DNA from: Octopus vulgaris
Lineage: Eukaryota
Assembly (NCBI GenBank): GCA_951406725.2
Contig: OX597824.1
Location: 91,636,001 to 91,700,000, forward strand
Length of the DNA stretch: 64,000 bases
Direction of reading: 5' to 3'
In this document: in pieces, positions 10,637-60,841 of the stretch
How the letters are laid out: each line of letters starts with the position of its first letter
How positions within the stretch are numbered: the stretch's first letter is position 1
The notes under the pieces: model-generated
The model's input: the letters and a program-made list of their open reading frames with translations, nothing else
The model's database searches: none
What the model was told of the DNA's origin: nothing
Translations under genes and position numbers: made by a program

Positions 10637-10740
10637 AGATGAAATTTACGGGGAAAACAAGACGAAGACAGGTGTATTAGCTTAACGCTCGGGAAGGTGA
10701 GAAAATCTTTTACGTTTCGAGCCTACGCTCTTCAACAAAT
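10637..10740 (-). mobile_element. Hammerhead-bearing short element (family HA), truncated
   Basis: Minus strand reads ttgttgaagagcgtaggctcgaaacgtaaaag, plus the family tail (tacacctgtcttcgtcttg). Confidence 0.75.
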
Positions 10741-11099
10741 GGTATAGTAGTTAAGGGCGCTGGCTACTAAATCCAAGATTTCGAGCTCGATTCCAAGCAG
10801 TGACCTGAGTAATGATAACTTTGGAGTACCTTTTAGCCAGGAGTACCGGTTGGCCAGAATTGTATGTTGCCATGTTTTGATCTGCCTTCTTTCATTTTTC
10901 TCTTCTTTATTGTTCTGCTCTTCTTCGTCTTCCTTCGAACTGTTTTTTTTTTACTTTGTTTGGACTTTTGTTGTTGTTTTTAACTGTTTTCCTGAACTTT
11001 TTCTTCAAAGCATGGCGAAGAAATTGAACACTGCGTTGGAGTGGGAAATCCTCCCACCCAAGCAATGGCTAAAAACCTTAGAGGAAAGAACGGTGGTGC

Positions 11100-11345
11100 T
11101 CAGCTGTCCCTGTTTCGTCTACTCCACGTTACGCGGAATAGACAAAACAGGGACAACTGAATAAGGGGGATATTCCTTGTGTTGTATGTCTCGTACGTTG
11201 TCTTTTCGTTATTTGAAAAAAAAGTCCGTTTCCATGGTTTTGTTTTTTGTGTTTTCGTTTCTCATTGTGTTCAACGTTTTTTTTGGTGTCCTGTACACAT
11301 ATATGCATGTATATATACATTTAGATGTAGGTTTGTACATATATG
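11100..11345 (+). mobile_element. Fold-back element arm with a 25-bp hairpin (family C-like)
   Basis: cagctgtccctgtttcgtctactcc pairs with ggaatagacaaaacagggacaactg. The arm is homologous to the inverted repeat at 61890-62140. Confidence 0.65.
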
Positions 11346-11419
11346 TATGTATATATATATATATATATATATATATATATATATATATATATATATATAT
11401 ATATATATATATATATATC

Positions 11420-11990
11420 ACTTTTCTGTGTCCCTGTCATTTTTCTCGCCCCTCCTTAATTCTTCTACCCCTCTGCCTCTACCTCTCTCTCTTCTCTTCC
11501 CACGTGACTGGCGTTCGGCCAAGCCTGATCTTTCTTTCTTGGTCTGGCCGTTGTTCGTGCAACATCGATATTACTCCATGTCCCTGTGAAATGTTGTATC
11601 CCTGCCGTAAGGCTTTACTTCCATACACGCCAGCTTAATTTAATTCGCCCTTAGTCGAAAGACACCTGTTGTAATTTCCTGTTATTATTTTTATTGTATT
11701 TGTGTAACATTGTCCGTTTTTTCGTCCTTGTTTTTGTATACATTCGCTTCTTTCTTCAAAGGAATCTAATTCTCTTAGCTTATTTTTTCCTTGGGGCTGG
11801 CCAGATTGAAGCAATCTCGAGTATAATCTGCCGAAATTGCGAAGATAATATGGTACTCGACTGAGGAAAAAAAACTCCGAATGACCTGTCGTTGTTTTCT
11901 TTGTATCGTCTATCTGGATGTTCTGTTGTCTCATTTTTGTATCACCTGTCCGGGTGTTTTGCGTTCATGTCCCATTTTGTATTTTCTATA
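11420..11990 (+). mobile_element. Dispersed TA-flanked repeat family B (other copies 19930-20180 +, 33370-33850 -, 40383-40780 -)
   Basis: Shared blocks: cacgtgac, agtcgaaagacacctgttg, ttccttggggctggccagatt, and an invariant gaCTGA(G/A/T)GA. Copies end gtccc...gt before a TA/CA microsatellite. Confidence 0.75.
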
Positions 11991-12004
11991 TATATACAGA
12001 CAAA

Positions 12005-12177
12005 GGAACTAAGTCGATTACATCGACCTCAGTGCATAACTGGTACTTATTTAATCGACCCCGAAAGGATGAAAAGTAAAGTCAACCGCGGCGGAATTTG
12101 AACTCAGGACGTAACGGCAAACGAAATACCGCTAAGCATTTCGGCCGGCGTGCTAATGATTCTGCCAGCTCGCCGCC
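12005..12177 (-). mobile_element. SINE family B copy
   Basis: Reverse complement of ggcggcgagctggcagaa...gagttcaaattccgccg.ggt.gacttt.ctttcatcctttcggggtcgat. Confidence 0.85.
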
Positions 12178-56900: not shown

Positions 56901-59204
56901 ATCTAAAAAAGAAACTTAAAATTATTTGAGGATGATCCCTGGCTTACCATCCATACAGGAAGTGCAAAAGGTTTGTCTTAACTGGTACATCATACTTATT
57001 GAGAAGAGCATTGTCTCTGTGAATTTTCTTTCCTTTCCCGCCATTTGGTTTCTTCGTGCTCTTCTTTTACTTCATCTTTTCTTTTTCTCTCTGTATTTCT
57101 CTGACTTTTTTTTAATCATATGACTTTGAAAAAGAACAATCTGGCGTGTTAATTTAAACGGCCTACCAATGTATACAGTAAATTTTTTTGCCCTAGGTGT
57201 CAGGAGGACACTCAGCATGAAATGGAAGCAAAATTGAAAGAAGAAAATAATAATAATAATAATAATAATAATAGTAGTAGTAGTAGTAGTAGTAGTAGTA
57301 GTAGTAGTAGTAGTAGTAGTAGTAGTAATAATAATAATAATAATAATAATAATAATAATAATAACAATAATAATAATAATCCTTTCTATTGCAGTCAAAA
57401 GCCTGAAATTTCGGGGAAGGGGACTAGTCAGTTACATGGACCTCAGTGCTCAACTAGTACTTATTTTTATCGATCCCGATATGATGAAAGGCAAAGTCGA
57501 CCCCGGTAGAATTTGAGCTCAGAAAGTTAAAGACGGAGGAAAGCATTTCGCTCGGCGCGCTAACGATTTTGCCACCTCGGCCTCTTAACTACTACTACTA
57601 CTACTACTACTACTACTACTACTACTACTACTACTACTACTGATGCTGCTACTACTACTGCTGCTGCTGCTGCTGCTGCTGCTGCTGCTGCTGCTGATGA
57701 TGATGATGATGATGATGATGATAATAATAATAATAATAATAATAATAATAATAATAATAATAATGATAATAATAATAATTTATGTCAAAATTAGTTCCAC
57801 TATTGAGTAAGAACTGTGATTATCTCCTTATCAGTGTAGCCTACATAGAGCGGAATAGTGGAATGCCGGTGTTTCGAGTCCACAAAATGTGTTAAATTAA
57901 GCGTGACGCTTCCTTTTCTTTCTTCATCAAATTCTCACTGGACGATAACGAATGCTAACTGACCTAATCATTACATCAATGCTTAGAATCAAAGCTGAGT
58001 GTCATTATTAATAATGGTTAGCATCGTTTATCTACCAAGAAATTGCCACCGTTTATGTGTTATGTATTGTATGTGAGTGTTGGAGAGGGTGGCCTTGTTG
58101 GTGTGGGTGATGTCGGCACGAGTGTCTGTGACTGTGTGAGTTTTGTTACCTTGCCAAATGTGCGTTTCTCTGCTGTGTGTAAGAATGCGCACATAAGCAT
58201 ATACATATATATACACACATATATACACACACATATACATACACAGATACACACACACACACACACATACACACACACACACACGCATATATATATATAT
58301 ATATATGTTTTTATTTATATACGTATATATATATATATATATTGACTCCAGCATGGCCGCAGTCAAATGACTGAAACAAGTCGAAGAATACAATAATATA
58401 TATACATATATATATACACACACATATATATACACATAGACACACACATATATACATATATACACGTTTATATACACACATGAATATACGTTATATCAAT
58501 ATGTATGATATATACATATGCGTGTGTACGTACGTACACGCAAACATGTACGTATCTATACACACATACATACACAATTACACACACACATACATACATA
58601 TCAATAATTGTGTGTGTGCGTGTGTGTGTATACGTATGCATCCACACACATACATTATTTTGAGCATGATTGTTACATAGGTAACCATAATCGGACCCCT
58701 TACCCGAAATAATGCACACAGCACACAACACTCACCGCATATGATATACGAAGTTATGGGACATCACCAATGGACAGCTTTTTTGTTCTCTAAACACATA
58801 TACAACATAATTCCATACACGTAGATGTCTTGCAAACAACTTGCACATGCAAGTGCTACCAGTTAAAAGCTCCGTATACCGGAAGCTAACAAGTGTATGG
58901 GGTCATCAGGAGAGAATGCGCGCCATTTCGGGGCCTACCTCTCGACGGCATCAATACGCACCGCCCCCCCCCCCTCACTGATATGAGGCCCCGCTTGCTA
59001 GATCAGCTGGTTATGAAGAACTCAGTATACTTCTAGCCATCGCTCATCGTCTCTTTTCAAACAAATACAGTGGCTAGCCTTCTCCACTGTAGATGCATAT
59101 ATATGGCAATGTATGTATGTATGTATGTATGTATGTATGTATGTATGTATGTATGTATGTATGTATGTATACATGTATGTATGTATGAATGTATGCCTTC
59201 ATCG

Positions 59205-59915
59205 CATTTTAAAAATTATATGGAGTTCTTTTACTCCAAACACAGATGTCCTTGCATCTGCTGGCATCGCCTCCATTAAAGCTATGATTTTGAGGAACCA
59301 ATTGAGATGATGAGGCCATATTGTTCGAATGGCAGATGAACGCATGCCGAAACAACTGTTTTATGGTGAGCTTGCAGAGGGGAAACGCTATCGGCGTAAA
59401 CCTAAAAGAAAAGGTTTAAGGGTGGCATAGGGACTTGGAATGGTTCCATGAAGTCACTTGGAATGGTTCCAGAAGACATAGAAATCTTTGCTTCGGATCG
59501 AACTGGATGGCGAACAAAGGTGTGGAATGGAGTGAAAGCATTTGAAGAGGCCAGGATAACACAAGTGAGACTCAAGAGGGATCGAAAGAAAAAAGTAACG
59601 ATCGAGAAGGTGAATGACAATGACCTTTTTGTGTGCACAATCTGTGACAGATTAGACCTGTCTTTGGCTGGCCTCAGATCTTTTCTGCGAACCCATGGAA
59701 AACGAACCTTCACCAACTATTCTGCCTATATGTCTGTGCACACCTTTGAATGCAGTGTATGCCGGGAGATTTGCAAATCCAGCGGAGGCCTCAAAAGACA
59801 TTTAAAAATCCAGAAAGGGCATAACTGTAGGTGGTCCAAATCGGATGTGCAATCTATGTGAGTGTATTTTCAGAACATTGTCTCTTTTAGAAAGTCACAT
59901 TAGGTGCCATGATAG
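59205..59915 (+). mobile_element. RTE (BovB-like) LINE 3' fragment with C2H2-like zinc fingers
   Basis: RILKI.W...TPNTDVL..AGI.SI.AM....QLR**GHIVRMADERMPKQLFYGELAEGKR, then A.DRTGWR, CTICDR..LRTH and CSVC..KRHLK. Confidence 0.88.
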
Positions 59916-59984
59916 TTCTAAGGTGTATAGGAAGTGGTCAAACTCAGTTTAAGGAGTAGACAACCACCATGCATGTATGTATAT

Positions 59985-60578
59985 GTGTCTGTTTTATTTG
60001 AAGATTTCTTGCCAATGGAGAAAGAACCGGTTTCTAATCTAGATCCAAGGATCCTTCTTTGGAATTTCAACCCCAGGGTATTTTTTTTTGTATGTATGTA
60101 TGTGGATGTGCAGATTTCTATGTTTTGTTTTATGTATGTATTCTCATGCATATAATTGCATATATAGACATGCTCATATATATTTAAATGATAAACTTCT
60201 GGTAAGTTTTACAGACTTTTACAGTTCCAGTGATGGGTTGGATCTGTAGTCTTCGAATTAGCTTTCTCTTTTTTGGTTTTGAGAAGCCTAATTTCTCAAG
60301 ATTGATATTTATGCAGTGTGTTAAATATCCCAGGGCCCCAATAATTACAGATATGAACGTGAACTTGTAATCTGGATAGAGTAACTGCAGATTTCTCCAT
60401 AGTTCAGCGTAGATGTTCTCTTTTTCACTGATCTTCAGTTTTATGTTAACATCCGCAGGGCAGATAATTTCCACAACTGAACACAGTTTCTCTTCTCTAT
60501 CCCAAATCATTAAATCAGGTCTGTTGTGCTTACATTTTATAGAGGTCTTCACTGGGACTTCCCACTAGTATTCCTTTT
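59985..60578 (-). mobile_element. RLE (R4/Dong-type) LINE: endonuclease domain plus full 3' UTR, in (CATA)n
   Basis: KHNRPDLMIWDREEKLCSVVEIICPAD...K.SEKENIYAEL (PD-D/E-K restriction-like endonuclease); the UTR ends AATAAA..catacat. Confidence 0.92.
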
Positions 60579-60795
60579 TATGTATGTATGTATGTATGTA
60601 TGTATGTATGTATGTATGTATGTATGTATGTATCTTTTAACTTTTACTCGTTTAACTCAGTGGGACTGAACCCGGAACCATGTGGTTGGTAAGCAAGCTA
60701 ATTACTACACAGCTGCTCCTATAATATATATATATATATATATATATATATATATATATATATATATATATATATATATATAAACCGAAGTAAAC

Positions 60796-60841
60796 AAAAC
60801 TGTCCGACGAACGGGAACGTGAAACTCTGAGTAACAGTTTT
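60796..60841 (+). ncRNA. Minimal type I hammerhead ribozyme (C4 variant)
   Basis: aaaactgt-CCGACGA-ACG-ggaa-CGT-GAAA-ctc-t-gag-TA-acagtttt: perfect 8-bp stem I, GNRA-capped stem II, GUA site. Lies in a ~90-bp insert between (TA)n tracts. Confidence 0.82.

Follow-up and report, generated by a model that had tools for sequence, protein, structure and literature searches.

Minimal hammerhead motifs in a 64-kb window of the octopus genome: probable relics of Penelope-like elements and an abundant repeat with a changed core base

Introduction

The terminal repeats of Penelope-like elements (PLEs) carry minimal hammerhead ribozymes that failed to cleave as single motifs in vitro and cleaved weakly as dimers (PMC4209133). 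The 2014 study described these motifs as heterogeneous and mostly single, at 2,000-9,000 per genome, with molluscan examples and with cores carrying a U3-A8 pair, including the core UUGAAAA in a Schistosoma PLE (PMC4209133). Here, we analyze such motifs in 64,000 nucleotides of Octopus vulgaris DNA (assembly GCA_951406725.2, contig OX597824.1, positions 91,636,001 to 91,700,000 of the forward strand), the whole of which we call the window. A sequence-only reading of this window had proposed a dense set of variant type I hammerheads in several unrelated short elements: a repeat family of six copies, HA, four single motifs at 17742, 34018, 40810 and 60796, and weaker cases at 28481 and 55826. 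Lunse et al. reportedly described, in 2017, about 150,000 PLE-linked hammerhead variants.

Recent work on an active PLE showed that its protein nicks DNA of high AT content and primes within its RNA, that its hammerhead was cleaved only with the PLE protein, and that cleavage was dispensable for insertion in vitro (PMC11167929). Related hammerheads can reach high copy numbers, with up to 120,000 copies in the retrozymes of the axolotl (PMC7229834), and U4C, U3-A8, U10.1-U11.1 and A6C are known natural variants (PMC3088659). In cephalopods, a repeat annotation of an octopus reports 31 PLE families with recent activity, its available text being silent on ribozymes (PMC13282606), and a squid genome paper counted 235 Rfam hammerheads.

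Results

Minimal hammerheads in the window exceed chance expectation

We consider it likely that the motifs of this window are relics of several PLE families and that HA is a mass-copied repeat with a family-wide A6U core. All sequences named in the sequence-only reading were located where it had placed them, and five contexts hold the minimal type I hammerhead layout, namely HA, described below, and four single motifs:

40810-40867, plus strand: minimal type I hammerhead, core CUGAUGA at 40818, predicted cut after C40859
60796-60841, plus strand: minimal type I hammerhead, U4C core CCGACGA at 60804, predicted cut after A60833
17742-17797, plus strand: hammerhead, core CUGAAGA at 17747, predicted cut after A17792
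34018-34054, minus strand: probable minimal hammerhead, U3-A8 core UUGAAAA, the weakest of the five contexts (score 8)

Stems I and II with a palindromic minimal stem III were present in the tested motifs. The 40810 motif combines a canonical core with a stem I of 7/8 pairs and a 4-bp palindrome around one U, and the 60796 motif has an 8-bp stem I, a 3-bp stem II and a 4-bp palindrome within an 89-nt piece flanked by two (TA)n runs. The 17742 motif, which begins 9 nt past a (TA)n run, has a canonical core, a 5-bp stem I, a 12-nt insert ahead of stem II and a palindrome with one mismatch; the 34018 motif has a stem I of only 3 bp, an AAUU palindrome and a G10.1-C11.1 pair, and lies outside any PLE context. 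With 3-8 covariation allowed, 40818, 17747 and 34051 (U3-A8) satisfy the hammerhead core consensus, and 60804 deviates by the known U4C. Stem III self-duplex energies were -7.9 kcal/mol for 60804, -3.6 for 40818, -1.7 for HA and +2.2 for 34051, which makes 60796 and 40810 the best candidates for dimer cleavage. Within the window, none of these four motifs has a second copy.

Chance expectation was estimated from 60 local dinucleotide shuffles of the window with microsatellites kept in place. A loose descriptor allowing one core deviation gave five matches at a score of at least 8 against a null mean of 0.72, a number reached in 0 of the 60 shuffles, and these matches (40818, 60804, 17747, 48011 and 34051) are exactly the five contexts of the sequence-only reading. 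This descriptor was widened after 17747 had been seen, and its first version gave four matches against 0.5 at a score of at least 7. A strict descriptor shaped on PLE loci gave three (40818, 60804 and 34051) against 0.15, with a shuffle maximum of one. Allowing two deviations yielded 22 matches that are mostly noise (null mean 7 at a score of at least 5) and were left uncounted. The top score was that of 40818 (14), followed by 60804 (13), which exceeded all 60 shuffles under the first descriptor version; 17747 scored 9.5. The motifs are thus in excess over shuffled sequence. The proposed density of about one motif per 6 kb was inflated by damaged HA copies: we count five plausibly intact motifs in 64 kb, and chance could account for up to about one of them.

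A covariance model was built solely from 24 hammerheads of unrelated PLE loci. It gave 24 window matches at E<=10, and seven of its top eight are motifs of the sequence-only reading: four HA copies, among them 47979-48016 at rank 1 (19.8 bits, E 0.007), together with 40813 (rank 4), 34016 and 17742 (rank 8). The 60796 motif fared poorly (hit at 60799, rank 16 of 24, E 5.8), and neither 28481 nor 55826 was recovered. Standard models do overlook these motifs, since no hammerhead reached the Rfam gathering score anywhere in the window; the best Rfam hammerhead match was HH9 at 40800-40882, with 16.3 bits under a gathering score of 52, and neither 60796 nor HA had any. A whole-window Rfam scan by E-value was swamped by matches of microsatellites to microRNAs. 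At rank 5, the covariance model placed a degenerate hammerhead-like match at 61275-61332 on the plus strand (core GUGAGAA, 14.4 bits), whose 3' side resembles PLE motifs of loci L016, L020, L026 and L061.

Several of the single motifs (34018, 17742 and 55826) might be chance matches of a permissive descriptor in AT-rich DNA, which we judge unlikely. The loose null mean is 0.7-1.6 matches per window, 17747 was reached with the widened descriptor only, stem I of 34018 is short, and 55826 lacks the layout. However, the strict descriptor keeps its excess, 34018 has G10.1-C11.1 and a core known from real PLEs, and 17742 pairs its canonical core with a start at a (TA)n run. At 55826 itself we found no core with a GAAA in the required layout on either strand, and the site proved to lie inside a MITE-like (miniature inverted-repeat transposable element) feature at 55750-55957 with 64-nt inverted arms of 84% identity; this weaker case therefore fails.

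The motifs share their core variants and context with PLEs

As a control set we examined the best 80 of 428 confirmed PLE-related loci. Descriptor matches lay on the sense strand in 28 of 31 cases, 21 of these 28 at 78-405 nt behind the end of the endonuclease, and the strict descriptor matched 30 times in sense and twice in antisense orientation, the sense matches representing 27 distinct motifs in 26 loci. The cores of these 27 are CUGANGA (20), UUGANAA (4), CCGANGA (1), AUGANUA (1) and GUGANCA (1); stem I has 3-5 bp in 26 of them, and H17 is U in 11, C in 9 and A in 7. In an alignment of 24 PLE-locus motifs, the helices covary in 10/10 pairs across families. The core UUGAAAA of 34018 recurs in loci L012, L042 and L055, and U4C in L022. 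The cores of 17742, 40810 and 34018, like the U4C change of 60796, thus count as ordinary PLE variants, since the same variants occur in PLE loci. The core variety that had been reported (CUGAAGA, CUGAUGA, UUGAAAA and U4C) is therefore that of PLEs, with the exception of CUGUNGA.

Some control motifs depart further from the consensus. In the 3' region of L010 (about 1860-1900, plus strand), a hammerhead combines a 6-bp stem I with a canonical core and a GCGC palindrome but has only three bases where stem II belongs, which is a natural stem-II-less form, and L027:1969 and L079:117 carry the rarer 3-8 covariants A3-U8 and G3-C8.

The most direct evidence for a PLE-type identity within the window comes from 28481:

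27733-28146, plus strand: 3' end of a 5'-truncated Penelope-like open reading frame (ORF), with a CX4CXXC linker and a GIY-YIG endonuclease, interrupted by two in-frame stops
28473-28518, plus strand: degenerate pseudo-long-terminal-repeat (pLTR) hammerhead, core CUGAUGA at 28481, 335 nt 3' of the endonuclease end on the same strand

Frame 27688-27948 recovered three homologues, two of them 698-aa proteins with reverse transcriptase (RT) and GIY-YIG domains. The remnant matches the C-terminus of P0001 (RVT_1 + GIY-YIG) with 54% identity over 127 aa (tblastn, E 1e-38) and scores 128.7 bits against the profile; this match places the GIY-YIG endonuclease C-terminal in an RT polyprotein, as in endonuclease-positive (EN+) PLEs. 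P0003 had no match in phage records. A search with 152 PLE-related proteins and the profile found no other PLE ORF remnant in the window, and of this one only the last ~135 codons survive, the RT part being absent. The 28481 motif has U10.1-U11.1 at the base of stem II, a GCGC palindrome and U16.1 changed to A, which breaks the core consensus, and the descriptors do not pick it up. The same U-U base of stem II occurs in its relatives L003, L004 and L008 (3 of 12 close relatives inspected). Because an endonuclease remnant lies upstream at the usual distance and relatives share the U-U layout, we classify 28481 from its sequence as a PLE hammerhead damaged at U16.1. What had been listed as a weaker case thus has the best context of all, although its motif is mutated.

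Upstream of this motif by 55-200 nt, at 28340-28430 on the plus strand, lie TATA-like and reverse CCAAT-like boxes, possibly a PLE terminal-repeat promoter; a comparable position in L003 likewise holds a TATA-like box. No RNA record was listed for this PLE stretch, a result without bearing on its expression.

HA is an abundant repeat with a changed core base

HA is a repeat of ~180 nt with six copies in the window; three have a 5' end in common, and each of the six terminates in TA repeats:

47888-48085, minus strand: HA copy in which the variant motif is complete (47979-48016); core CUGUUGA at 48011-48005
15931-16105, plus strand: full-length HA copy, motif 15976-16017, core CAGUAGA (private U4A)
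18947-19125, plus strand: full-length HA copy, motif 19005-19042, core CCGUAGA
33245-33340, plus strand: HA copy with the G5A core CUAUGGA and an internal deletion
10600-10739, minus strand: 5'-truncated HA copy without the 5' strand of stem I, core UUGUUGA
12474-12617, minus strand: 5'-truncated HA copy, core largely lost

Its motif consists of stem I CUUU/AAAG, core CUGUNGA, one A, stem II GAGC/GCUC, GAAA and an ACGU palindrome. The single base after A9, G10.1-C11.1 and the palindrome are published extra signatures of PLE hammerheads; the core fails the PLE consensus, with U6 in all five window copies that have a core. The proposal that HA is a set of hammerheads holds for the family of six, but only 48011 keeps the whole motif; among the damaged copies, position 4 is changed in two, one carries G5A, and the other two are 5'-truncated. 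The predicted monomer folds of 48011 and 15984 consist of stems I and II. ARAGORN found no tRNA gene in HA and no tRNA model matched at gathering, a decayed tRNA-like head still being possible. Pattern scans for HA in metagenome, genome and viral contigs gave no matches, and the copies at 15984 and 19010, 3 kb apart, were considered as flanks of a PLE ORF and rejected, there being no ORF between them.

To follow variation across the family, contigs of four of 24 listed sequencing runs, under three organism labels, were aligned to the HA copy 15926-16106 at 80% likeness, giving 16,139, 13,976, 4,428 and 3,311 HA contigs per run. Position 4 is U in 83-99.7%, and position 6 shows no letter besides U at >=4% in any of the four runs. 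N7 is the sole four-state site among 181, with C, G and U at 7-52% each; H17 alternates between A and U, the latter at 2-42%. A G-to-A change affects G12, which lies in a CpG, at 2-6%, and a G-to-U change affects position 16015 in stem I at 4-12%. Leaving out CpG sites as well as changes unique to the reference copy, and calling a site variable at >=4%, we found variable sites at 0/11 core, 1/16 stem, 2/7 free and 9/45 downstream positions. The per-site variation of HA is a hammerhead pattern of constraint, but compensatory pairs are missing. Depth falls 5' of 15989, partly since contigs end there, and two of six listed pieces starting there were clipped, so that a minor A6 subfamily may be hidden.

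These data bear on whether HA is a ribozyme-dead passenger, in which A6U abolished cleavage in the founder and the fold was kept as a site for the PLE protein or by recent descent; lost cleavage may even have aided amplification, the RNA staying whole. We hold this to be quite possible, at a little below even chances. In its favor, the PLE motifs keep A6 throughout, a position-6 change led to low activity in a published case (PMC3088659), stem I of HA is weak, covariation is absent, and hammerhead mutants left PLE insertion in vitro unimpaired (PMC11167929). Yet N7 takes all four bases and H17 only A or U, while no alternative letter reaches 4% at C3, G5, U6, G8 or A9 and position 4 has only the reference copy's own change; a dead motif is not expected to vary just at the catalytically free sites. 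That HA is instead a ~100,000-copy non-autonomous PLE partner, its A6U hammerhead selected during amplification as a slow or PLE-protein-assisted dimer ribozyme, is a tentative reading that we think rather doubtful, and the remaining weight goes to a fold kept for other reasons.

HA is very abundant by contig depth. Its summed depth divided by single-contig depth is 6e4-2e5, which is not a copy number but puts HA very roughly at 1e5 copies, in agreement with six copies in 64 kb. Among ~37,900 HA contigs, one showed a back-joint, a test weakened by short contigs and microsatellite ends. This result speaks, if weakly, against the motifs being non-LTR (long terminal repeat) retrozymes, in which tandem repeats are cut to monomers and then circularized. 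Such elements descend from the terminal repeats of PLEs and also occur as solo copies (bioRxiv 10.64898/2026.07.22.740005), and HA is non-coding and of similar size; however, no motif of the window forms a tandem array, no head-to-tail arrangement was found, and large loops for loop 1-loop 2 contacts are missing. We regard this origin as improbable.

Other repeats and the host context

The window is AT-rich, with 20,615 of its 64,000 bases in tandem repeats and many short interspersed repeats. Microsatellites flank six of the 11 motifs on both sides within 260 nt, vs 21% of random positions. A second repeat, HB, has four copies:

11490-11982, plus strand: HB repeat copy
19936-20176, plus strand: HB repeat copy
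33480-33849, minus strand: HB repeat copy
40384-40779, minus strand: HB repeat copy, one of the four

Near its T-rich 3' end, HB carries CUGANGA with N7 = G, A, U and G, followed 8-16 nt later by GAAU rather than GAAA, a pattern with three exact matches vs 0.01 expected. It looks like a dead hammerhead-derived motif, because the 15.1-16.1 pair and H17 fail. One HB copy stands head-to-head with the 40810 motif. Neither a link of HB to the 3' region of L010 (not among the top local alignment scores) nor a twister (no Rfam twister match) was borne out. A U6 snRNA copy at 31405-31499 on the minus strand (Rfam 87.3 bits), with several substitutions and set among repeats, is probably a retroposed pseudogene. 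Three related fragments (60126-60564, minus; 30785-31102, plus; 36018-36296, minus) have no Pfam match, and their translation resembles what we take to be the restriction-like endonuclease end of an R4/Dong-type long interspersed nuclear element (LINE).

No Pfam match at the curated cut-off, and hence no host exon, was found among the longest 150 of 250 non-repetitive frames of the window. The suggestion that the motifs cut host pre-mRNA in introns and so alter gene expression draws on their high density and on HA contigs in a run guessed to be RNA. We consider it very improbable: no host gene is in evidence, only one of six HA copies is intact and has no same-family intact or tandem partner nearby, and the only close same-strand HA pairs (15984/19010 and 10730/12600) have damaged cores. 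Furthermore, cleavage failed in single motifs and was slow in dimers (PMC4209133), and for the active PLE the available text reports no RNA-seq ends at its cut site (PMC11167929).

Discussion

Our analysis indicates that the motifs of this window are real and mostly of a kind already known in PLE-bearing animals, and most of the finding repeats the published picture of such genomes as strewn with heterogeneous minimal hammerheads. The sole apparently new element is the family-wide A6U core of HA. The four single motifs are probably 5'-truncated PLE ends, and HA was likely mobilized by a PLE protein. That the motifs belong to non-autonomous elements, as first proposed, stands for HA only, 28481 being the 3' end of a truncated autonomous PLE.

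Several observations weigh against assigning all of these motifs to PLEs and HA to the hammerheads. About one of the five loose matches is expected by chance, covariance-model E-values are weak, falling below 0.01 only for 47979-48016, and the single motifs could not be shown to be families. No sequence link was found between HA and any of the 80 PLE loci, and the ten motifs other than 28481, those of HA and the four single ones, have no PLE ORF nearby. A6 is present in 27/27 PLE motifs and the CUGUNGA core in none. Within HA, 0/8 pairs show a compensatory change in the six copies, where pairs hardly vary, the read table holds no paired changes, and the contrast between core and flank is marginal (Fisher p 0.05).

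In the mechanism we propose, a PLE protein would nick AT-rich or microsatellite DNA and reverse-transcribe from the 3' region of its RNA, mostly yielding short products, so that only the terminal repeat with its hammerhead would be left. In tandem source elements, two motifs could pair through their palindromic stem III and be cut after UH, the dimer cut being slow or aided by the PLE protein. The window would then hold short 3' ends of several PLE families and one amplified non-coding derivative, and its dispersed single copies are predicted to be mostly inert because they are without a partner.

The window motifs resemble the minimal hammerheads of metazoan PLEs in their type I layout, the base between A9 and 10.1, G10.1-C11.1, a 3-5-bp stem I, a palindromic minimal stem III and their mostly single, scattered and heterogeneous copies. 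They differ in the family-wide U6 of HA, absent from the alignment rows compared in the available part of PMC4209133, in the 12-nt insert of 17742 and in density, HA alone reaching about one per 11 kb in the window vs 2,000-9,000 motifs per genome. As in Neptune/Nematis-type PLEs (PMC8557442), the remnant at 27733-28146 has a CX2-5CxxC linker before GIY-YIG, a downstream hammerhead and a microsatellite insertion bias; only its truncated C-terminal end is available for comparison, and its place in this clade is tentative. HA is non-coding, hammerhead-bearing and probably PLE-related like animal non-LTR retrozymes (PMC7229834; Li et al. 2026 preprint), whereas retrozymes form tandem arrays and circular RNA and the window copies are dispersed monomers with minimal, often damaged motifs. 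Among natural core variants, A6C is described as a single phage motif rather than a high-copy family, and A6U is not named in the available text (PMC3088659). The literature we searched holds no report of A6U or of an HA-like cephalopod family; Lunse et al. 2017 or the 2017 Terminon paper may list A6U, and HA may already be catalogued as a repeat in Repbase or Dfam.

HA offers a test case for the role of PLE hammerheads: a high-copy family with a changed core base, whose variation is confined to sites where a hammerhead tolerates it, can separate a need for cleavage from a fold that serves as a protein-binding handle. It also illustrates that counts based on CUGANGA can miss a whole abundant family. 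If its A6U core were both selected and active, HA would rank with the densest known repeats that carry a ribozyme, and CUGANGA descriptors would not see it.

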